A stretch of 64,000 bases of DNA from Nitrospirota bacterium (GTDB taxonomy: Bacteria; Nitrospirota; UBA9217), in NCBI GenBank assembly GCA_963818475.1, contig CAWFSF010000005.1, positions 384,001-448,000 on the forward strand, written 5' to 3'. Each line of letters opens with the position of its first letter. Positions within the stretch are counted from its first letter, which is position 1. Shown here piece by piece: positions 3,707 through 29,610 of this stretch. Made by a program: the position numbers and the translations under genes. The notes below the pieces were generated by a model, which saw only the letters and a list, made by a program, of their open reading frames with translations, did no database searches and was not told the DNA's origin.

Positions 3707-4459
3707 TCACCATCTCAGCTCACCCGGCGGTTTCCTGACCGAGTTCCTGGAGACTTCGGCAATAAGGCCGTTGCGCAGATGTACCACCCGGTCGGCCATG
3801 CCCGCGATGTCCACGTTGTGCGTGATGATGACCGTGGCGGTCCCCAGCTCGCGGTTCACCCGCTCCAGGGCTTCGAGCACGACCACGCCGGTCTGGGAAT
3901 CGAGCGCGCCGGTCGGCTCGTCGCAGAGCAGGACCTCGGGGTTCTTCGAGATCGCCCGGGCAATGGCGATGCGCTGCTGCTCGCCGCCTGAAAGCTGGGC
4001 CGGGAAATGATCGAGCCGCTCGGCAAGGCCCACGAGTCCGAGGGCATCTTCGGGCCTCATCGGGTTCCGCGCGATCTCTGTCACTACTGCAACATTTTCC
4101 CGCGCCGTGAGGCTCGGAATGAGATTATAGAACTGGAACACGAACCCCACATGAAAGCGGCGGTATTCGGTAAGCTCTTTCTCCGTGGCCCGCGTCAGGT
4201 CCCTTCCGCAATAGGTCACCCGGCCTCCGCTCGCCGTGTCGAGCCCGCCGAGGATGTTCAGGAGCGTTGACTTGCCGCTGCCCGAGGGGCCGAGCAGCAC
4301 GACCAGCTCGCCTGCGGAAAGCTCCAGGTCGATGCCGCGCAGGGCCTGGACCTTGATCTCCCCCATAGCGTATATCTTGGTCAGCCCCTGCACCTGAAAA
4401 ACCGGGTATTCAGGCCCCGTTTTTTTTTGAACAGCTTCCCGCGTTGATGATCCGTTCAT
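3707..4459 (-). CDS. ABC transporter ATP-binding protein (LolD/MacB-like)
   Basis: Walker [24 protein letters not shown]. Confidence 0.95.
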
Positions 4460-4761
4460 GCGACCTCGTATATTCCTATGTTAAGTATACCTGAAAATAT
4501 GATTTGATCGGGAGACGGGAAACGGCGTGAGCAGGTCTTTACGCGGGTGAACCTATGAAAATCTTTGACACGGAAGAGGCGGATTAACCTCGGATAAAAG
4601 CAAAGAGATTTGAGGGGAAAATGAGAGCACGCAAGAAAGGGTGACAAGGGGATAGATGGCGGTGAAAAAAAAATACTTTTTTTTGCATATCCCCTTCGTG
4701 GCCTGAATGAATTTCTTGACCCGTCTAAGGCCACGTCCGCTCGCCCGGTGATAAAGCACCC

Positions 4762-4808
4762 TCTCCTTTTTCCCTCTCCCCTCGAGGGAGAGGGCTGGGG
4801 TGAGGGGC
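4762..4808. repeat. REP-like palindrome (CCCTCTCCC...GGGAGAGGG)
   Basis: ccctctcccctcgagggagagggctggggtgagggg; second copy ~12650-12696. Confidence 0.7.
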
Positions 4809-4874
4809 GGTTTTAGTGCTTCGGCCTCAAACAGTGCACGTTCGCCCTGCGGGACGCTCCCTTAGGCCAAGACG

Positions 4875-5090
4875 GGTGCCCAAGAAATTCATAGGGCCGC
4901 TCCGGGAATATGCGGGGTTTGGGTGGGTCAGACCCTCAGAGCAGTCCCATGCGGAAATTTAGCCAGGCGACCGAGTCCGAGGGTGAAGCATTTCGGACTG
5001 TCTGAGCCCGAAAAGCGAGTTTCCGAAATGTACCGAGGACGACCGAGCATGGCGTGAAGAATTTTCGCCGGGTGCCCTTCTTGGGCACTC
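4875..5090 (+). repeat. Structured ~210 nt non-coding element, copy A
   Basis: Near-identical core to 6307-6436; closing stem gtgcccaagaa/ttcttgggcac; inner stem catttcgga/tccgaaatg. Confidence 0.7.
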
Positions 5091-5114
5091 TCTATCTCCT
5101 ACGCGCCCCGAGCC

Positions 5115-5705
5115 TCAGCCCCTCTTCCGATACCGGAAACAATCAACAACATGGTCGTTGACCATGCCGACAGCCTGCATGAAGGCATAGCAGATGGTCG
5201 GTCCGACGAACTTGAAGCCCCTTTTTTTGAGTTCTTTGCTCATGGCCTCGGCCTCAGGTGTCGTTACGGGTATCGCTGCAAGACGTTGGCATGCGTGGCG
5301 GATCTGCTTTCCGCCCACGAAGCGCCAGAGATACGCATCCAGCGAGCCGAACTCCTTCTGGACCTCCAGGACCAGCCTGGCGTTGATTATGGCGGCATCG
5401 ATCTTTAGCCGGTTGCGAATGATACCTTCATTCTTCAGCAGCCGCTGCGCGTCCCGGGTCGTGAACCGCGCCACGACCGCGGGGTCGAAACCCTTGAAGG
5501 CCTTGCGATAGTTCTCGCGCTTCTTGAGCACCGTTGACCAGGACAACCCGGCCTGCGCGCCCTCCAGCACGAGGAACTCGAAGAGCTTCCGGTCGTCGTG
5601 GAGCGGCACGCCCCATTCCTCGTCATGATAGGCGATCATCAGCGGATCGTCGGACGTCCATGAGCACCGTTTGACATTTTTCTTCATGGTAACAGTTTCC
5701 ATCAT
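5115..5705 (-). CDS. tag: DNA-3-methyladenine glycosylase I
   Basis: RCSW, YHDEEWG, LEGAQAGLSW, FKFVGPT, NDHVVDC motifs. Confidence 0.95.
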   Translation of the reverse strand: MMETVTMKKNVKRCSWTSDDPLMIAYHDEEWGVPLHDDRKLFEFLVLEGAQAGLSWSTVLKKRENYRKAFKGFDPAVVARFTTRDAQRLLKNEGIIRNRLKIDAAIINARLVLEVQKEFGSLDAYLWRFVGGKQIRHACQRLAAIPVTTPEAEAMSKELKKRGFKFVGPTICYAFMQAVGMVNDHVVDCFRYRKRG

Positions 5706-18806: not shown

Positions 18807-19050
18807 TCGGGAGCCCTGTTCTGAGATTGCCTTGCCACATGCCGAAAATAAAACGTCTCAACTTACTGAAAACTTTACTACATATATCCACAAAGGGCAA
18901 GCGAAGAATCGTTCGTGCCTATCGCACAGGCTTTTATCAACTCAAGCAACAGCCCCACAACGGGGACTTTTATGTCTAAAAACGGCAGTTACTCGCGCAA
19001 AAAGCCGCAAAGTACGCTAAGAAAAGTTGGGACTTGAACCCTTTGAGTGA

Positions 19051-19993
19051 ACCCTTTTAGGGTCAAGTCGCTTTTGTTGCATTCTCATATTCACGCAACC
19101 ACCGGCTTATCGTCGAACGGTGGACTGCGAGGTGTCGTGCAAGCTGACTTTGATGATAGCCGTACTTCTCTACCGCTTCTATCAGTTTCTTCTTCAGCTT
19201 TCGCTGATCGGCGTTTATCGATTCTGGCAACAGCTTTGACAATGCGGGCCGCGTTGAGTATCGCTGGCTCCGAGGAATCTCGGGGATATCCTGGTGTTTC
19301 CTGAGATGATCCACCAACGTCTCGACAAAGTCATCCTCGCCCAGGAGCGCCTGCCCCCTCACCGCAGTCCAGATCGTTTCTTCCCCGATCCCCCATCTGA
19401 TGAATTGCCGGTACTCGCTTTCCGCTTTTCCACGCTTTCCACTGAACTGCCCGAGCACCCAATCCGTAGTCAGGCAAGGGTGGGACTTCGCTTGGCCCGC
19501 TGTGGCCAGATAACTGGACCACTTCCAGGACTCCGGTCCTTCAACCATCCTGGCTCGCACTGGATTCAGGACAACATAGCGGCATACTTCCAGAAGATGG
19601 CTGTCTTTCTGGATCAGTATCGCCTTGTAGCGACCTTGAAACAAGTGTCCGTTCCTGCCGTGATATTTGTTGAAGAGCTGCGTGTAGACACCGTTGAGCT
19701 GCCGCATGCCAAGGGACAGATTGCCTTCGGGAGTCTCGATGAGAAGATGGTAATGGTTGGTCATGAGGCAATAGGCGTGACAGTTCCAATTGTACCGTTT
19801 ATTGACGTGCTGGAGAGTATTCAAAAAAACTTCCCGGTCATGATCATCCTTAAAGACAGGCTTCTTCTCATTCCCGCGGGAAGTGACATGGTAGACTGCA
19901 CCTGCGTATTCTATGCGGAGAGGGCGTGACATGGGGTGAGCTTAGCAGAAAAAAGGACGTATTGCAACAAAAGAGACCTGACCCTAAAGGGTC
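19051..19993 (-). mobile_element. RAYT/Y1 transposase element with inverted-repeat ends
   Basis: acccttttagggtcaagtcgcttttgttgca (19051-19081) is the near reverse complement of tgcaacaaaagagacctgaccctaaagggt (19963-19992). Confidence 0.75.
19063..19932 (-). CDS. REP-associated tyrosine transposase (HUH Y1) with C-terminal HTH
   Basis: MSRPLRIEY, YHVTSRGN, YCLMTNHYHLL, YVVLNPVRA, WSSY. Confidence 0.9.
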   Translation of the reverse strand: MSRPLRIEYAGAVYHVTSRGNEKKPVFKDDHDREVFLNTLQHVNKRYNWNCHAYCLMTNHYHLLIETPEGNLSLGMRQLNGVYTQLFNKYHGRNGHLFQGRYKAILIQKDSHLLEVCRYVVLNPVRARMVEGPESWKWSSYLATAGQAKSHPCLTTDWVLGQFSGKRGKAESEYRQFIRWGIGEETIWTAVRGQALLGEDDFVETLVDHLRKHQDIPEIPRSQRYSTRPALSKLLPESINADQRKLKKKLIEAVEKYGYHQSQLARHLAVHRSTISRWLREYENATKAT

Positions 19994-20143
19994 CCTGGAA
20001 CCTTAGTGTCCACGTCCCCTATGTATCCTAAAAGTCCGGAGAATCATTTCCAGCCTTTTCTTTTTGTTCTCTTTGTCGGCTGCGACTGCCTCTCGCTATG
20101 AATCAGAACAAAAGCATACATAGAAACAACGTCCCCAAGTCTG

Positions 20144-20225
20144 CCCCAGATAAGCTGATAACTTCACCAAGACGCTTTGGGGACATCCTATACATGCTTT
20201 CTTTCATCAGGTCTAGCAAAGCAAC
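20144..20225. repeat. ~80-100 nt non-coding repeat, copy B
   Basis: Direct repeat of 11326-11405. Confidence 0.7.
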
Positions 20226-20274
20226 CATAGAAACAATTTCCCTATCGTGCCCTACTGTCTCCCTTGGTTGTATT

Positions 20275-21828
20275 TCACTCTGCTGTATTTTCGGTATTTT
20301 GCGGAAAAACTTCTCGTTGATCATAACGATACCGATCTAACTTTCTCAAGTCTCGTGCTAGTGGTTGTTTTGGACTCGACATGAACTCTTTTACACTAGG
20401 AGCTTTCCTAAATCCCGTATAGAAGGCGTAATCAAGCATATATGCTTCATACTTCTCACCTGCAGTTGTAGGTGTTATGCCTGGATGTAAAATATGAATG
20501 AATCGTAGATCGCTTACTTTTTTAATTAATTTATATCGTTCATCCGAGCTATCAAGTTTAACAAGAAAAGCGTTACGCTTAATTTCCTTTAGGCAATAAT
20601 CCTTTATGTCATTGACAATATCTATAACGAGCGTTGCCGCCTCGGCTACATCATCTGACACATAATTTTCTTTCTCCGTTAAAGAATCAGCGGCGGCCAT
20701 GTTTATATCCATTACCGCAACATTAGTACGTCCGGCTGCAAGTGCTTTTGTAATTGCATTATTAAAAATATAGAGAGCATCTCGTGGAACGCCAGCTGCA
20801 ACCCATACGAGTCTTGAAAGAGCCGCTTTTCCGGCTATGCTCGCTATGCTAGGAATTCCAACATATTTCACATAGCTATCAAGTATCAAATGCAAGTGAT
20901 TAAGTGCTTCACCTGGATTGACTAAGTTATAATCAAGTCGTATTACCTGAGCATCGCCGGGGGTCTGAAGTCCTTCATTTGTTTGTTCATGTAAAAGCGT
21001 TGTTAGGTTTTCAATGGACGTAATTTTTAAATAAATGCTGTTCCCTCGTGCGAACGAATAGATTGTTGATAAAAAATAGGGTTGAATCGTTGGATGTAAC
21101 AGGTGAAGATCATCCAAAAATAAATAAAAATGTCCAAACTTGCGCACGAATGGCAAAAAATCGCGTGCAAAAATAGGTAATTTTTGATTAATTTCTCTTT
21201 TTGTAAGTTGTTCTCCCTTGTTTTCAAGAGCAATAATAATATCTTTGAGCCGTTGTATCCGATTCACATCAGCTTCTGAGTACTCCGAAATTGCATCAAC
21301 TATTTCATAAAGAACCTGAGGAATAACTAATAGATCATCTCTCCCGCTGTATTGCTGGAGAGCGATCCAGGCAAAAGGTCTCTTCTCGCGTTTAGCTTGA
21401 TGACATGCATAAAGTACCAAACTTGATTTCCCTGCGCCGCGTCGGCCAAAAACTACGTGGTTAGCTTCGCTGTATATCCGTCGCTCCTCACCTCCTAAAA
21501 ATGGAATGAATTTTTTGTGAAAATCGGAGTCGAGTGTTGCTTTGCCGACAGTAAGCGATTCTGACAGTATACGTTGAAGAAGTTGAATCTCATTAGATTT
21601 GAGCCACGATTTTGGTATGACTGTCTTCAAGAATACGTGCTCTGAATATTTATTGTTCGACCCCATCTCATTACGAATAAGTGAAAGAGCATTTGTATAA
21701 ATCTCGTTGATATGCCCTACGTGGATTGCTAAAAAATCTTCGCCTGCCTTGTCAATTATTTGCCAGTTAGGGGTAGTAATGTTGCACACAGCAGCAAAAC
21801 GATTAATAAACTGTTTGGCTTGATCCAT
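20275..21828 (-). CDS. P-loop ATPase (ORC/Cdc6-like AAA)
   Basis: Walker A GRRGAGKS, Walker B FYLFLDD, AGVPRD motif; AT-rich. Confidence 0.8.
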   Translation of the reverse strand: MDQAKQFINRFAAVCNITTPNWQIIDKAGEDFLAIHVGHINEIYTNALSLIRNEMGSNNKYSEHVFLKTVIPKSWLKSNEIQLLQRILSESLTVGKATLDSDFHKKFIPFLGGEERRIYSEANHVVFGRRGAGKSSLVLYACHQAKREKRPFAWIALQQYSGRDDLLVIPQVLYEIVDAISEYSEADVNRIQRLKDIIIALENKGEQLTKREINQKLPIFARDFLPFVRKFGHFYLFLDDLHLLHPTIQPYFLSTIYSFARGNSIYLKITSIENLTTLLHEQTNEGLQTPGDAQVIRLDYNLVNPGEALNHLHLILDSYVKYVGIPSIASIAGKAALSRLVWVAAGVPRDALYIFNNAITKALAAGRTNVAVMDINMAAADSLTEKENYVSDDVAEAATLVIDIVNDIKDYCLKEIKRNAFLVKLDSSDERYKLIKKVSDLRFIHILHPGITPTTAGEKYEAYMLDYAFYTGFRKAPSVKEFMSSPKQPLARDLRKLDRYRYDQREVFPQNTENTAE

Positions 21829-22322
21829 TATGAGATTGCTCCTAGTGTTATCAAATAATTGCGCGCTACCTGGTGGAATCTTCGCGCTTCTGAAACGTAT
21901 GTGTGGCTTGTGAGTTCTAATGCCTGTTCAGATACCGTATGGTCGTAATCGGCAAGATTTCGATCAGCTCTAAATTTAATGAGAAAATCTTCCCATGTCG
22001 ATTTATCTGGAAAGTTATTTGGTAATTCACCGATCTTTTTATGGTCAGTAGGCTCTGTATTGTAATAACCGCTGGACTTGAGCCTAACTGCTCGGCTCAT
22101 ACAGTAAGTACTATAATAGCCTCGTGAGACTCTTTGCCGCCAGCTTGATTGACCTGCAGCCGACTCTGCAAATAGTAGATGTGAGCGGCTAAGATTGACT
22201 AATTGCTGGACGTTTTCATTTATAGCAGCTTGTATTTTTCCCAGTTCCCCAGCGTCCAGAATGGATTCAAGGCACCTCATTGTTTTTTGCAGATTGATAT
22301 TTAAAAGGTGATTATCGTCCAT
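21828..22322 (-). CDS. HEPN-like protein
   Basis: VSRGYYSTYCMSRA ... DH ... RADRNLADY; stop overlaps ATPase start (TAATG). Confidence 0.7.
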   Translation of the reverse strand: MDDNHLLNINLQKTMRCLESILDAGELGKIQAAINENVQQLVNLSRSHLLFAESAAGQSSWRQRVSRGYYSTYCMSRAVRLKSSGYYNTEPTDHKKIGELPNNFPDKSTWEDFLIKFRADRNLADYDHTVSEQALELTSHTYVSEARRFHQVARNYLITLGAIS

Positions 22323-22369
22323 TGGAGTATTCCATTCATATTACTGCAGATTTTTATTTAAACTTATTA

Positions 22370-22480
22370 TTCCACACAGCTTGCTGCGTGGTCACCTTAT
22401 AGAGGGAAGAGTAAGAGAAACCGCTGGTTTCTCAGTTGAACAATTTTCATTTATACCCTGTCAGCTTGCTGCAGGTATTG
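22370..22480. mobile_element. Miniature element with two CAGC-TT-GCTG hairpins (IS200/IS605-end-like)
   Basis: ccacacagcttgctgcgtgg and ataccctgtcagcttgctgcaggtat, ~85 bp apart. Confidence 0.45.
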
Positions 22481-22741
22481 ATTCGAAAGAACTATATCAT
22501 AATATAGGCTGATTGAGAATATAAAATAGGGTTGACAAGGACTGTAAAAGTATGTACCTCGAAACACAGGGGCTTAATGATATATAACGTTGTGTCCTAA
22601 GTGAACTATTACTGCCTATATCGATAAGTCAATTTCAGACACCCCAATGATCGGTCCATCGGCCTTAAGCATTGACGAACGCATCCATAAAAAACTCCAT
22701 AAAGTTCCTCGTAGGACACAACGTACCAAAGTGCTCTCCAG

Positions 22742-23236
22742 TCACTTAAATTTATCGGCTTCAGCAAGAATGGCGCTTAAGAACTCTGTTTCTGCTGTTT
22801 GTAGGCCAGCGAGAGCACTTTCCATCTCTTTAACCACTATGTTTTTGTCATCAGCAGACGCAATATTAAAACCTTTACCAGACATAGAAGATAGTAACGC
22901 ACGGTAAGAAAAAACCTTATCAAGGAACGGCCTCACTTGAGGGAAATACATATTCACCTGCAAAAGCGTTTTGTCGTAAGCTTTTCCCTCATCACGATTA
23001 TCATTACTCATCTTTAGGAGAGCTGATCCGGGTATTTTCCCTTTAAAATAGGTCAATGCGTTTTCATGATGTATATTCATCATTCGACAATACCGGTGTG
23101 CGCTTATATAAAGCTCTGCTGCATTATTGCGCATGAGCAAACGCTTTTCTTTTTTTGCAGCCAATTTATGAGCAAGTGTGGCGGATACCACACCACTCAT
23201 CAAAATAGTCAATACAGGAAATATCCATGAGTTCAT
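22742..23236 (-). CDS. Hypothetical protein with N-terminal TM
   Basis: 164 aa; MNSWIFPVLTILMSGVVSATLA; RBS gagg. Confidence 0.65.
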   Translation of the reverse strand: MNSWIFPVLTILMSGVVSATLAHKLAAKKEKRLLMRNNAAELYISAHRYCRMMNIHHENALTYFKGKIPGSALLKMSNDNRDEGKAYDKTLLQVNMYFPQVRPFLDKVFSYRALLSSMSGKGFNIASADDKNIVVKEMESALAGLQTAETEFLSAILAEADKFK

Positions 23237-23408
23237 ATGTTATCCTCGATATACCTTGGAAGTGTATCCTATACTTTGCGAACGTTGTTTCTTTCTAGGC
23301 TTTCTCAAGTCCTACTGCTCAGTAAAGGGGAAGCAACCTTAGACACAATGTCATATTTGTTCATAATGCACTAAATTCATCAAGGTCCCAAGGAGCTCCC
23401 CTTAATGA

Positions 23409-25249
23409 TCATTTTCCTTGATGATCCACAACTCTTTTCAGTGCCAGACGAATACGCTGTCTATCTATAAATACCTTTGAAACGACTACATTCAAGCCCT
23501 GTCCTCTGACGACATTTTTTTCAAAATCAGCATACTCAAAACCTCCCAGAATCATTTCTTCTTTTGGAATATGCCCTGTTAGCCCTTCTGGAAGGCTGAC
23601 ACTAACAAAATTTGGCGTGACTGCCTGAACGATGGCACTCAATTCTTTTCCTTTTGGAAGCCGCTTATGAATTTTTGGCCAAGGATTCTGTTCCAAGCGA
23701 CGGATGCTGCCTTTAATGATCCTGCGCTCAACAGACCGTTCGTATATCATGATTTTTTTCCGGCCATTTAAAATATCGTTTGCTTCAGACTCATCTGAAC
23801 CGAGCCAATCCACTTCATGCTTCGGTATAAATATTTCGATATTGTCGCAATAATCCCCTACATAGTTAGAACCAGTGACACCCACTATATCGACTTCGAT
23901 GACATCATTAACCTTAGGCAGCTTTTCCGACTTCCAAGGATCTTCATCAGGGAATCGAAGTGATAGACTCAGTTTACTTTGATTTTTATCTATTGTTTGC
24001 ACTCTGAATTGGTATGTAGATCCAATATGCAAAACATCGCTGCACTTAGCTATTGATCGCCACGAACATTCATTTTTATAAATGACTGCATTTAATCCCT
24101 GCACGTCAACAAGTGTTGCACTTTGAGATATGTCTAGTACGACCCCTTTTACAAAGCTGCCCTCCTTTATAGAAAGAGCCGTTAGCTTTTCTTCAAAACT
24201 ATTATCAGAAGAGAGCTTATTCCTGCGTAAAAGAGATATTTCAAACACCTTACCATTCTTAATATTATCCGAACTCTTGATGCTAATCTTATTTGTCTTG
24301 ATTAACGTCAGCCTTACATCACCGTCAATTGCCGAGATAAGCCTTTCAGAAAAATCATGTGCCTCAGGGTACGCGATTACATATATAGAGTCGCAGCCCT
24401 GTCTCAATTTGACGTTTATTGCCTGCAAGTAAGGAGTAACTCCTAATTCCTCAGCTTTTTTGGTTTTTGCCAGCAGACAATGCCTGCGCGAACTTCAGAA
24501 CTGAGATACTCAAGGCACATTTCTTCGCCAATCTCTCGGTTCGCCAACTTGACTAAATATTCTACAAACAATAGAATTTCATTAGTTTTGTCTACTCCAA
24601 TAATATCATCGTAAAGCGTTGCGCCTAATAAATTTAGCTCTTCTAAAAATATAGTAAGAAATATTCCGTTATCATCCAGCCTGATGAGCTTCACAATAAG
24701 ATCAGCCACACTCTTGTTTTTCTCGATTTCGGGATTGAGAAAATATCGTTGAAAGATTGGGCGTGCGTGTTTGCCAAGCTTATCTGCGAGATTCCGGAGA
24801 ATTGTAAGATCAATCGCTGTTTGGGCATATGGCTCTAAATATGCTCGTAAATCAGCACAAACTACATGTGGTAGTGCAACTCTGGTGGCTGCCAATATAT
24901 TCCGAGTTTGATCATTCGTTTCTTCAAGACGCAATATCAATGTACCGTCCTGCAAAAATGTAGGATCAGAAATAGATGTTACCCACTTAATCTTAATTTT
25001 CGTGTCTGCCATGGATGGCATGAAAGGCTTAACATGTTTCTTAAGAAATTCTGTCGCAGTATATCCGACTTCGGAGGCTAAATACTCTTTTGAACCCCAT
25101 TTAAAAAGCAAAAATAATGGTTTAAAGATGAGTGCCTTTAACTTTTCCGCTCGATCTGGATCATGAATGACGAGCAATAGAGCTACCAGAAGGACGCCGG
25201 GTAGCCCATATGATAATATAATTTTCATAATTTCCTTTGCGACTTCCAT
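23409..25249 (-). CDS. Membrane-anchored protein with three C-terminal S1 RNA-binding domains (~613 aa; one-base frameshift ~24477)
   Basis: N-term TM; junction reads I-x-LLAKTKKAEELGVTPYLQAINV; three OB-like repeats with LSLSLR..DPW / SIRRLEQNPW / IRLALKR ends. Confidence 0.72.
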
Positions 25250-25476
25250 TACTTCCTCCTAGTTGCTGCTTGGTCTATGCACTCTGGAAGATTACAATAG
25301 AAAATCAGGCCAGGCTCCTTAACAATCAAAGCCCCCATGTTTTCCCAGTTCATAACTTGAGAACACGATTCACATGTTAGTTTTCCTTGGTCCATCTTTT
25401 CGGATAGATGGTATTTTTGTAGTATATCCCGTAGGTCTCTATCTCTTACGGCAGACACTTCTACTTTTTCTCGCAT
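25249..25476 (-). CDS. Small Cys4 Zn-finger-like protein
   Basis: CESC...CNLPEC; stop overlaps next start at 25249; RBS aggag. Confidence 0.72.
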   Translation of the reverse strand: MREKVEVSAVRDRDLRDILQKYHLSEKMDQGKLTCESCSQVMNWENMGALIVKEPGLIFYCNLPECIDQAATRRK

Positions 25477-25817
25477 AAGCTATTATCTCCTTTCATAAAC
25501 TAGTAGCAGAGGCAGTAGGGCCAGGCCAAAATTTGAAATACAAAGGGACGTTGTTGTTGAAATTGCGTCGTGCGAATCTAACAGAACTGAATGGATCTTC
25601 GGCATGGTGCTGAATGCACTCAACAATTTGTTGCATGATTGTAACTGATTTACTGTTCTCCGTCACCTGTCAGAAGTGACAGGTACCCGTTTTTCTAATA
25701 AAAACTTCCTTGGGAGCACTACTGTTGTTAGGACCGTGGTCCCAACTGCACCCGCGCAGTCCGGACTAACTTTGAGCCGTTAATGCTTTTGATGCTGTTC
25801 ATCCCGATCAGGTTCAG

Positions 25818-25850
25818 AAAAAAACCGGCAGAGATAGTATCTCTGCCGGC
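25818..25850 (-). terminator. Rho-independent terminator of groESL
   Basis: gccggcagagat-act-atctctgccggt followed by T-run on minus strand. Confidence 0.8.
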
Positions 25851-25895
25851 CTTCGTGTTTCAGTTCCTCGTGAAAGGAAACTTCGTTCATGTATC

Positions 25896-27550
<1,655 letters not shown>

Positions 27551-27664
27551 ATAATATTTCCTCCTTGGAAATCTTATTATTTTTTCGCCACGAAGGCGCG
27601 AAGTCACAAAGGGAATCAGGCTTATTGTCCGGCTTTCTCAGCATCTTAGTGTCGCTGGCAGAAT

Positions 27665-27934
27665 TTCTAGCCAGGATGCCCAGTACGTCTTCTTCTTTCA
27701 CGATCAGGTACTCGATGTTGTCGATGTTGATCTTGGAACCGGAATAGCGATCGAAGAGGATCTTGTCGCCGACCTTCAGCTGACTTCACTTCCTCGCCGA
27801 CGGCCTCGACCTTGCCCGCTCTGCGGCTTTTCTTTTGCGCTGTCGGGGATGTAGAGACCTCCTGCGGTCTTTTCCAGCTCCTCGGTATAGCTTACAAATA
27901 CCCTGTCCTTCAACGGCTTGAATTTGACGCTCAT
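27665..27934 (-). CDS. groS: Co-chaperonin GroES (frameshifted; end approximate)
   Basis: [14 protein letters not shown]...[17 protein letters not shown]...[14 protein letters not shown]...[13 protein letters not shown]. Confidence 0.92.
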
Positions 27935-27997
27935 CTTGCAACTCCTTTCGTGTAAAATAATTATATCCTCTTGCTTACGCTACTATTCTACCACAAG

Positions 27998-28024
27998 TTA
28001 GCACTCATTGGAAGCGAGTGCTAA
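27998..28024. promoter_or_regulatory. CIRCE element (HrcA operator)
   Basis: Perfect TTAGCACTC-N9-GAGTGCTAA upstream of groES. Confidence 0.97.
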
Positions 28025-28152
28025 TATATTGCCTGGCAAGTAAAAAAGCAAACGCTGATTTTAGGCAAATTATGCTAATTTTAGTTAGTATTTAGCTGTT
28101 TTAGCCAGATTTCTCACATAATGCTGATTTTTAATAACATTATGATAAAAAG

Positions 28153-28183
28153 AAAAAGCAGGGCTAATAAAGCCCTGCTTTTT
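28153..28183. terminator. Rho-independent terminator after ctpA
   Basis: aaaaagcagggc-taataaa-gccctgcttttt. Confidence 0.8.
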
Positions 28184-28209
28184 CAATTAGTTACTTATTT
28201 TCTGAACTG

Positions 28210-29610
28210 CTACTCGTTTTTCTTTTTCACTTCTACGGCAGCTTTCTTGGCACGGCACGATTCTTGAAAACATCCTCTGCCTTCGTCGCCGTTTTCAGGA
28301 TCTCGATCGCCTTCTGGATCTGGATGTCGTCCTTCTCGTCCTTGGGCACGACCTCCATGAGCGAAATCATCCTCTCCGCCGCGTGCTCGTGCTTCTTTCT
28401 TCTTTTTCTCTTCCTTCACCGTATCGTTCTTCAGATGCCGGTCAAGGTCCTTCTCCCTGACGACCATGACATGGACCGCCTCGCCGTCCTTCGCTTCCTT
28501 GATCGTCGGCAGTTTCACCTCGAGGTCGGGGGTGATGCCCACATTCTGGATCGAGCGGCCGCTCGGCGTATAATACTTGGCCGTGGTCAGCCGGATGCCG
28601 CGTGCCGTTCTCGAGCGGGAACACGGTCTGGACCGATCCCTTGCCGAAGGTCTGGGTGCCGACGATCAGCGCCCGCTTCGAATCCTGCAGCGCCCCTGCC
28701 ACGATCTCCGACGCGCTCGCGCTGCCGGTGTTCACGAGAATCACGATCGGATAGTCCCGCGGAGTTTCCGTCGCTCGTGGTGAGATAGTCCTTCCGGTCG
28801 CTCTTCTGCCTGCCCTGGAGATAGACGACCAGCTTGTCCTTGGGCAGGAACTGCCGCTCACATCGACCGACGCGTCCAGGATGCCTCCCGGGTTATTGCG
28901 CATGTCGAGGACCAGCTTCTTCATGCCCTTTGCCTCCAGCTCCTTGAGCGCCTTCTCCAGCTCGATCGGCCGTCTGGCCCTGGAACTGGATGATCTTCAC
29001 ATAGCCGATATCGTTGTCCAGCATTTTCGATTTGACGCTCTGCACCTTGATGATGTCGCGGGTGATCTTGAATTCCTTCGGCTTGTCCCATCCTTCGCGC
29101 TGGATCGTGCAGCCGCACCTGCGTGTTCTTGGGGCCGCGCATCTTGTCCACGGCCTGCTCGATCGACAGGTCCTTGGTCCATTCATCGTTGATCTTGACG
29201 ATCTTGTCGCCTGCCAGCAGTCCGGCGCGGTCCCCGGGCGTGCCCTCGATCGGCGCGATGATCGTCAGCATGCGCGTTCTTGATCCCGATCTGGATGCCG
29301 ACGCCCTGGAACTCGCCCTTGATGTCCATGCTCATTTCCTTGAACGCCCGCTCGGCCATATAGGACGAGTGCGGGTCAAGGCTCGACACCATGCCCCGGA
29401 TGGCGCCCTGGATCAGCTCCTTGGAGTCCGGGTCCTCCACGTAGTTGCGCTTGACCAGCTCGAGCGCCTGCGTAAACGCCTTCAGGTCCTCGTACGTATC
29501 GGACTTGGCCTGGACCAGCTTCCTGGCCGATCAGTATGCCGGTCGTAAGCAGGACAGCGCTGCAGCAGCAGACGACGCCGCCAGAACTTCTTTTTGTTGA
29601 TCCTGATCAT
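28210..29610 (-). CDS. ctpA: S41 carboxyl-terminal protease (multiple frameshifts)
   Basis: SLDPHSSY, PDZ APIEGTP, LDMRNNPGG, SASASEIVAGALQD, TFGKGSVQ across frames. Confidence 0.9.

Follow-up and report, generated by a model that had tools for sequence, protein, structure and literature searches.

Two overlapping genes in a 64,000-nucleotide (nt) stretch of a Nitrospirota genome (GTDB lineage UBA9217; GenBank assembly GCA_963818475.1, contig CAWFSF010000005.1, positions 384,001 to 448,000), hereafter referred to as the window, encode a 75-amino acid (aa) protein with four conserved cysteines, designated here the Cys4 protein, and a large protein of 613 aa in which a predicted N-terminal transmembrane helix is followed by an undescribed domain and three S1 domains. 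The two genes are a translationally coupled, conserved and autonomous pair, and the two-gene module is rare and horizontally mobile. An earlier reading of the window, made from its letters (the original prediction), had proposed the pair as a candidate anti-phage system. On the computational analysis reported here, the pair qualifies as a good candidate for an immune or conflict system of a new kind in bacteria; the function that we favour, with a probability of about 0.45, is that of an RNA-engaging, membrane-anchored conflict module, which would serve in defence or in a toxin-antitoxin-like manner.

Layout and conservation of the gene pair

All coordinates are positions in the window, and the pair lies on the minus strand, where open reading frames (ORFs) were found at 25249-25476 (75 aa), 24443-25249 (268 aa) and 23409-24428 (339 aa; 361 aa from stop to stop, from 24494). 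The Cys4 gene and the large gene overlap by one base in the arrangement TAATG, the last A of the Cys4 stop codon TAA being the first base of the large-gene ATG at 25249 (junction ...AGGAGGAAGTAATG, also given as ...AGGAGGAAGTAATGGAAGTC), which agrees with the coupling and overlap described in the original prediction. An AGGAGG motif is located within the 3' end of the Cys4 gene, just upstream of the large-gene ATG, and an AAGGAG motif upstream of the ATG of the Cys4 gene itself.

Conservation of the pair among homologues, which the original prediction had proposed to check, is evident from the loci compared. A Cys4 ORF (66-86 aa, CxxC...CxxxxC) stands directly upstream in 24/24 loci of the S1 type, drawn from genomes and metagenomes, and at 3/3 loci of other variants, hence at all 27 examined loci other than that of the window; where the start of the large gene could be placed, the two genes are -26 to +12 nt apart (20/20 loci). 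Residues C35, C38, C61 and C66 are invariant in 25/25 aligned orthologues, or 26/26 when the stand-alone copy L036 is added, and the protein presumably binds one zinc ion. The Cys4 family numbers 56 small proteins in the protein collection, none of which contains a Pfam domain, and the only longer (fused) form found was one protein of 181 aa. Searches of Pfam, NCBIfam, PHROGs and PADLOC gave no match for the Cys4 protein, and a PDB profile search (alignment A6) returned chance-level matches only.

Just downstream of the large gene is a 164-aa ORF (22742-23236, minus strand) with an N-terminal hydrophobic helix. It belongs to no family in Pfam, PADLOC, NCBIfam or PHROGs and has no conserved counterpart downstream of the pair at the other loci compared. 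Rfam gave no match over 19000-27000, and a promoter and terminator scan returned 13 against 9.2 ± 3.3 in shuffled sequence, i.e. not above expectation.

A single large gene interrupted by a missing base

The 268-aa and 339-aa ORFs are one gene, because homologues are single ORFs which all carry an S1 domain. Querying proteins of 470-2000 aa with the 268-aa piece gave 73 homologues of 510-644 aa (best identity 86%), and in this search the two halves never occurred apart, a C-terminal S1 domain being present in 73/73. A programmed frameshift or two separate genes were ruled out on the same grounds. Compared with the intact homologues P0001 (614 aa) and P0002 (617 aa), frame A is correct to ...EVRAGI(V) and frame B from LLAKTKKAEELGV (LLAKTKK onward), and the DNA at the junction reads 'att gt|ctg ctg'. 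The repaired protein comprises 257 + 1 + 355 = 613 aa, in keeping with the length of about 613 aa and the single indel near 24477 that had been anticipated.

The missing base is most likely an assembly or sequencing error. The source assembly consists of 7 contigs totalling 4.66 Mb (91% complete), and in the window region 25896-29550 the neighbouring groEL (25896-27522) is spread over at least three frames and the next gene falls into five or more pieces, while in the relatives G005 and G002 each of the two orthologues is an unbroken ORF, of 549 and 473 aa respectively. As these genes are split likewise and are intact in relatives, the missing base is probably not real. The indel rate of the assembly leads one to expect one break in a 1.84-kb gene, and any frameshift in the window should be distrusted given how indel-rich the assembly appears. 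Whether the frameshift is real is a question separate from that of function, and a true pseudogene, in which the module would be dead in this genome, is very unlikely. It would account for the two frames parted by the missing base, and the public read runs do not cover 24455-24531; however, an essential gene such as groEL and its neighbour are fragmented in the same indel-rich, seven-contig assembly, and both halves of the large gene are still 86-87% identical to P0001 without further stops.

Two side observations concern the same assembly. The groES gene, around 27776-27941, also appears broken, and outside the window three pieces of a second S1-repeat gene (G000:C5:487844-488887), lying in different frames, match the rpsA model with 130, 108 and 21 bits; this is probably a further S1-domain gene with frameshifts. 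Two of four public read runs are RNA libraries with contigs on 24769-25314, which do not show transcription and are not counted as evidence.

Table 1. Positions of the gene pair, its domains and the surrounding island in the window
Feature	Coordinates	Strand	Basis and remarks
Low-GC island carrying the pair	20001..25818	.	Right end at about 25818, just past the groEL terminator hairpin (25825-25849); GC drop at about 20000
Cys4 gene, 75 aa, CxxC...CxxxxC	25252..25476	-	ORF list, four invariant Cys; TAA stop 25249-25251
Large gene, 5' part, residues 1-257, frame A	24479..25249	-	ATG at 25249; 86% identity to P0001 1-268
Large gene, 3' part, residues 259-613, frame B	23409..24476	-	Stop 23409-23411; 87% identity to P0001 259-611
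Frameshift site, one base missing between 24477 and 24476	24476..24478	-	Third base of Val codon before CTG; homologues read GIV-LLAK
Predicted N-terminal transmembrane anchor, residues ~10-28	25166..25222	-	Hydropathy and Lys + Arg counts, 201 family proteins
Undescribed domain, conserved core, residues ~61-245	24515..25069	-	Near-invariant W89, N117, R135, D147, D192, G195, E204 (P0001 numbering)
Undescribed domain, second subdomain, residues ~246-345, spanning the frameshift	24216..24514	-	Conserved R239, G271, P274, Y275, Y291
S1 domain a, colinear with bS1 domain 3	23934..24176	-	Pfam S1, alignments
S1 domain b, colinear with bS1 domain 4	23688..23915	-	Alignments; greatest sequence variability within the protein
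S1 domain c, colinear with bS1 domain 5	23433..23657	-	Pfam S1_RRP5, alignments

Domain architecture of the large protein

A single N-terminal helix is predicted to anchor the large protein to the inner face of the membrane. The highest Kyte-Doolittle score of any 19-aa window is 2.63, for the one beginning at residue 10, and in 185/201 family proteins the top-scoring 19-aa window (≥1.6) begins ahead of residue 45 (median start 10), which supports the helix named in the original prediction. In the same 201 proteins the counts of lysine plus arginine are 0.83 before and 2.63 after the helix; hydropathy and charge together predict an N-out/C-in orientation, i.e. a short outside N-terminus and a cytoplasmic body.

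The undescribed domain occupies residues ~30-345 (~320 aa), and no family for it was found in Pfam, PADLOC, NCBIfam, PHROGs or PDB sequences, so that the middle domain is as unrecognised as first thought. Profile searches of the PDB with this domain (alignments A3 and A5) returned chance-level matches only. Conserved polar residues over 200 members are N117, R135, D147, D192, E204 (100%), R239, Y275 and Y291, accompanied by W89, G195 and G271; these are compatible with an active site without proving one. Among the ESM Atlas models of homologues, that of P0010 gave no usable structural match and that of P0150 (mean predicted local distance difference test, pLDDT, 0.49) gave template modelling scores of 0.64-0.73, depending on the target, to Alba/Rpp20 clusters. 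Pfam Alba matched 1/24 members at E 0.16, and an Alba-like fold for residues ~246-345 is an unconfirmed lead, unsupported by sequence.

The last ~270 residues form three S1 domains, matched by Pfam S1 (E 5.6e-17) together with S1_RRP5. A family profile aligned to E. coli ribosomal protein bS1 (RpsA) 160-435 with E 1.5e-41, and P0001 339-610 aligned in a single piece to E. coli bS1 166-438 with the (E)DPW and NPW linkers matched; the array is accordingly a colinear copy of bS1 domains 3-5, and the three repeats with RpsA-like PW linkers seen in the original prediction are real. In the usual numbering of bS1, domains 3-5 are the mRNA-binding core and the N-terminal S1 domains 1-2 dock on the ribosome. 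The large protein differs from bS1 in that it lacks these N-terminal S1 domains as well as domain 6 and carries the predicted transmembrane anchor and the undescribed domain instead, and in that its gene is accessory and rare. Mean pairwise identity within the S1-type family is highest for the core (61-245) and the third S1 domain, at 0.49 and 0.48, and lowest, at 0.29, for the middle one. The housekeeping gene rpsA was considered as the identity of the S1 gene and ruled out: the rpsA model TIGR00717 (cut-off 577 bits) matched over positions 161-434 with scores of 112.2 bits for P0001 and 114.1 for the window gene, and the true rpsA lies on another contig (G000:C6:2173147-2174676, 631.9 bits).

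The wider family and its exchangeable C-terminus

A profile built from the first 345 residues of the protein at 20 loci (N-domain profile), scored against 1.84 billion representatives, matched 1125 cluster representatives at E ≤ 1e-3 and, with the threshold at E ≤ 1e-10, 866. The family falls into length classes of ~600 aa (the window form), ~340-390 aa (the domain alone, clustering at ~345 aa) and 840-860 aa, with some members of 500-670 aa. In a Pfam scan of ten longer forms (498-860 aa), six had extra S1 domains and four had NusA-like KH domains. Residues 355-497 of P0200 are colinear with KH1-KH2 of NusA (T. maritima NusA 198-338, E 2.5e-21), and siblings such as P0200 and P0190 carry a KH pair of this kind at the position of the S1 array; the window protein differs in having S1 and not KH domains, and the family lacks the N-terminal, polymerase-binding domain of NusA. 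The C-terminus is exchangeable, being absent or consisting of at least three S1 domains or of a NusA-type KH1-KH2 pair.

What stays constant across the family is the Cys4 protein together with the transmembrane and undescribed-domain part. The Cys4 gene stands upstream of a stand-alone copy (L036, genome G023), which it again overlaps by one base, and of an 849-aa copy in G543. Marinitoga camini virus 1 (L039, KP836355.1), which is temperate and has a deep-sea Thermotogota host, possesses at 4297-5519 a stand-alone pair in which UF08_10 (70 aa, CxxC...CxxC) and UF08_11 (336 aa), both annotated as hypothetical, overlap by one base between the replication genes and the terminase. Since the Cys4 gene accompanies every other form that has a DNA context, it is this two-part unit that is constant, and the RNA-binding array is an exchangeable add-on.

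An integrated decoy, or guard, offers a different explanation of the arrays, and one that we regard as rather improbable. The family would then be one of receptors in which the arrays, instead of sensing RNA, present baits, bS1 domains 3-5 or NusA KH1-KH2, that imitate host factors hijacked by phages, and capture of a bait by a phage protein or phage RNA would trigger the membrane-anchored effector together with its zinc-finger partner. Phages do exploit these factors: Q-beta replicase and T4 RegB make use of bS1, and lambda N of NusA. The arrays, moreover, are more than generic OB or KH domains, since each is a colinear copy of one particular host protein, bS1 or NusA; the parts that dock on the ribosome or polymerase are missing, the match starting at about residue 160 of bS1 and about 198 of NusA; and the middle S1 domain is the fastest-evolving. 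Array-free stand-alone forms are nevertheless common and retain the Cys4 partner, RNA binding is a simpler property common to S1 and KH, and no phage partner is known. Because the family has a number of interchangeable C-termini, the S1 array among them, a general RNA-engaging role fits more simply than mimicry of S1.

The family is rare and patchy in the genomes sampled, being present in 2/401 genomes of the window's phylum and in 2/401 of a second phylum, that of locus L004 (starting genome included in each case). Its sources are sediment, genomes of Bacteroidota, Ignavibacteriota and Chloroflexota and one deep-sea phage, and the named hosts include Melioribacter, Melioribacteraceae, Bacteroidia, Dehalococcoidales and one deltaproteobacterial metagenome-assembled genome. 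P0150 matched one of 50,697 phage records and the S1-type domain (the N-domain of L005) none; plasmids searched with the same two queries gave no match, and three scans of IMG/VR (A1, P0150 and P0216) confirmed no relative, which is a weak negative as the scans were pattern-limited. Genome contigs searched with the KH-type P0200 gave no match, and with P0190 the only match was a KH region in an unrelated genome (L046).

It is against this distribution that a function for the phage or mobile element itself (for example superinfection exclusion, control of host translation or timing of lysis), with the chromosomal copies as remnants, has to be judged, and it seems very unlikely. Such a function would suit the position of the Marinitoga phage pair and the transposase and integrase fragments of the island in the window. 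The single matching phage record, the lack of any match for the S1-type domain among them and the negative IMG/VR and plasmid searches speak against it, however, as does the fact that phage structural genes are not near most chromosomal copies.

Genomic context

The GC content is 0.39-0.45 over 20001-26000 against ~0.6 in the flanks, and within the island (about 20000-25818) nothing matched in the 20 relatives searched except two short repeats, homology with the relatives resuming at 25818; the AT-rich island of the original prediction is thereby substantiated. To its left are an IS200-like transposase, an AbiEii-like fragment and an rve integrase. The transposase, an IS200-like Y1 enzyme fused to a helix-turn-helix domain (19063-19932, minus strand; Pfam Y1_Tnp 5.4e-14), stands at the left island edge and has many copies in the genome and its relatives. 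A second coupled pair is present in the island (20275-22322, minus strand), consisting of a 517-aa P-loop ATPase (Pfam ORC-CDC6-like 3.9e-9, AAA_16; NCBIfam Sll1717 family 7.2e-9) and a 164-aa protein (PADLOC candidate PDC-M05B, 2.1e-5), whose stop and start codons share base 21828. The 164-aa partner shows by eye an R-x6-H motif that we take to be HEPN-like. The space from the Cys4 gene to the groEL terminator contains a short repeat (25599-25715), of which the genome has six or more further copies (57-120 nt, 83-90% identity); it occurs also in G001 and G003 and may be an element of the repetitive extragenic palindromic type or one resembling a miniature inverted-repeat transposable element at the island edge. 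A non-coding stretch of ~130 nt (22355-22484), between the PDC-M05B-like gene and the 164-aa ORF that follows the large gene, matches G010 (90%), G003 (88%) and G006 (72%), unlike the rest of the island; it contains a terminator-like hairpin (22415-22433) and has no Rfam match.

The neighbours of the pair in the window are the ORC/Cdc6-like P-loop ATPase and the PADLOC PDC-M05B match. Elsewhere they are Lamassu LmuA/B/C (L018), type III restriction-modification with a serine recombinase (L010), PDC-S11 with SIR2_2 (L006), PDC-S06 (PrrC-like AAA_13) and PDC-S31 (DUF2971) with transposase-like ORFs recognised by eye only (L002), the MjaI restriction enzyme with KilA-N (L013), a Gp49-type toxin with a DNA methylase recognised by eye only (L036) and a tyrosine integrase (L001); at L004, L005, L011, L021 and L045 they are housekeeping or unclassified genes. 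Restriction or defence-type neighbours were found at 6/13 loci with usable flanks, and a toxin or integrase only at 2/13; these are raw counts from a small sample. The six loci are suggestive.

Comparison with known systems

Predicted immune systems make modular use of RNA-binding OB/S1 domains and of KH domains like those of NusA, according to the extracts consulted of PMC7159879, bioRxiv 10.64898/2026.09.30.754977 and the TOTE paper PMC12458937. The vWA-MoxR/ternary systems (Kaur et al. 2020), TOTE and the Tiamat-like type VI-A systems are, as far as those extracts describe them, defined by vWA, MoxR, TPR, TBP and GHL ATPase components which are absent from the pair; conversely, the transmembrane and undescribed-domain part and the Cys4 partner do not figure in these descriptions. 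TOTE is defined in the extract of PMC12458937 by TPR, OB, TBP and effector components; no TPR or TBP gene was seen in the pair or its flanks, and the model S1CSD-TOTE-1 matched the large protein at chance level (E 0.024, 14.6 bits against a cut-off of 27). PADLOC-DB v2, searched at E ≤ 0.1 with the Cys4 protein and with each half of the large protein, gave no match. In the ten members of the wider family searched, no PADLOC defence model was matched, with one weak hit of P0147 to Csx21 (E 0.0051). In NCBIfam (release 20, 2026), P0001, P0038 and P0064 matched only rpsA-type models, below cut-off, and the Cys4 protein nothing. In the literature, supplements left aside and the sources taken in extract, no description of an architecture of Cys4 protein, transmembrane and undescribed domain and S1 domains was found. 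The claim of the original prediction that the architecture is absent from described systems therefore holds in Pfam, PADLOC, NCBIfam and PHROGs. In our judgement the pair falls outside all kinds of system described so far, with a putative function and with bS1 and NusA as known relatives of its arrays only.

Two further likenesses are to membrane-anchored RNases and to small two-gene modules. RNase Y (membrane helix, KH and HD domains) and RNase E (S1 domain and membrane-targeting helix) combine, by analogy, a membrane tether and a KH or S1 domain with another domain, and in type II toxin-antitoxin pairs and two-gene abortive infection (Abi) modules a small upstream gene overlaps a larger one in an autonomous, mobile unit of defence or mobile islands. 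The pair could accordingly be a membrane-tethered factor of RNA processing or decay, or a plain toxin-antitoxin addiction module on mobile DNA that is kept by selfish stability and not by phage pressure, an alternative that we consider unlikely. The integrases, recombinases and insertion sequence elements beside several copies would be in line with it, as would the 5/13 contexts without defence genes. RNase Y and RNase E are, however, housekeeping and near-universal enzymes. The pair occurs in ~0.5% of sampled genomes, and no HD, RNase E/G or other nuclease family was detected in it. Nor does either protein match a known family of toxins, antitoxins or Abi proteins. Pfam, NCBIfam and PDB sequence searches brought up no nuclease or toxin family, and the Cys4 protein is without the usual antitoxin DNA-binding folds by sequence. 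Co-location with restriction-modification, Lamassu and SIR2 genes at independent loci is, furthermore, typical of defence genes.

Proposed function

S1 and KH modules serve to bind the substrate in ribonucleases (RNases). Because of this property, and because S1-like and NusA-like KH domains also stand in effector positions of predicted conflict systems in the extract of PMC7159879, an RNA-engaging conflict module, of an anti-phage or abortive-infection kind or else toxin-antitoxin-like, is the function that we favour. The S1 array, or the KH pair in siblings, would capture single-stranded RNA at the membrane or report its presence there, and the RNA captured could be that of a phage or consist of untranslated transcripts. 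The conserved undescribed domain would be the putative effector; an enzyme, possibly a nuclease, is suggested by the residues N, R, D, D, E, R, Y and Y, which are near-invariant in it. The Cys4 protein may be an obligate partner of this effector domain, acting as a regulator, an inhibitor or a co-sensor.

Several observations weigh against such a conflict module. No PADLOC or NCBIfam anti-phage model matched either protein, and the evidence for an enzyme consists of the conserved polar residues, no catalytic fold being recognised; the ESM Atlas models of the homologues P0010 and P0150 are poor (pLDDT 0.52 and 0.49). At 5/13 loci (L004, L005, L011, L021 and L045) neither defence nor mobile genes were present among those neighbours that were scanned, several of the 'defence' neighbours at the other loci are PADLOC candidate (PDC) families and not validated systems, and the carriage of the pair by a phage also fits a phage-side function. 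The window copy is itself frameshifted, though very probably not a real pseudogene. Four public read runs shared only 5-7% of sampled words, and the reads mapped to the region gave ten 151-nt contigs, mostly 95-99% alike, none of which extends over 24455-24531.

The anti-phage proposal of the original prediction is consequently sustained in part. The conserved pair, the undescribed architecture and the defence-type neighbours at 6/13 loci speak for it, while the idea of the S1 array as a decoy is weakened, the array being interchangeable.

Significance

Even if it is not immune in function, the pair represents a widespread, conserved and wholly unannotated module, and a family that can be defined with clear boundaries and with conserved residues for mutagenesis. 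Should the decoy explanation be true, it would provide a parallel to the integrated decoys of plant nucleotide-binding leucine-rich repeat receptors and would show which host translation and transcription factors are targeted by phages in uncultured phyla. If the pair is a conflict system, its effector domain, without detectable relatives and represented by over 1000 sequence clusters, and its small zinc-finger partner would both be new. It would also reveal a new design principle, in which the whole RNA-binding cores of bS1, a translation factor, and NusA, a transcription factor, are borrowed and fused to a membrane-anchored module, and it would open to direct test the long-standing question of how cells tell phage RNA, or the take-over of bS1 or NusA, from normal gene expression.

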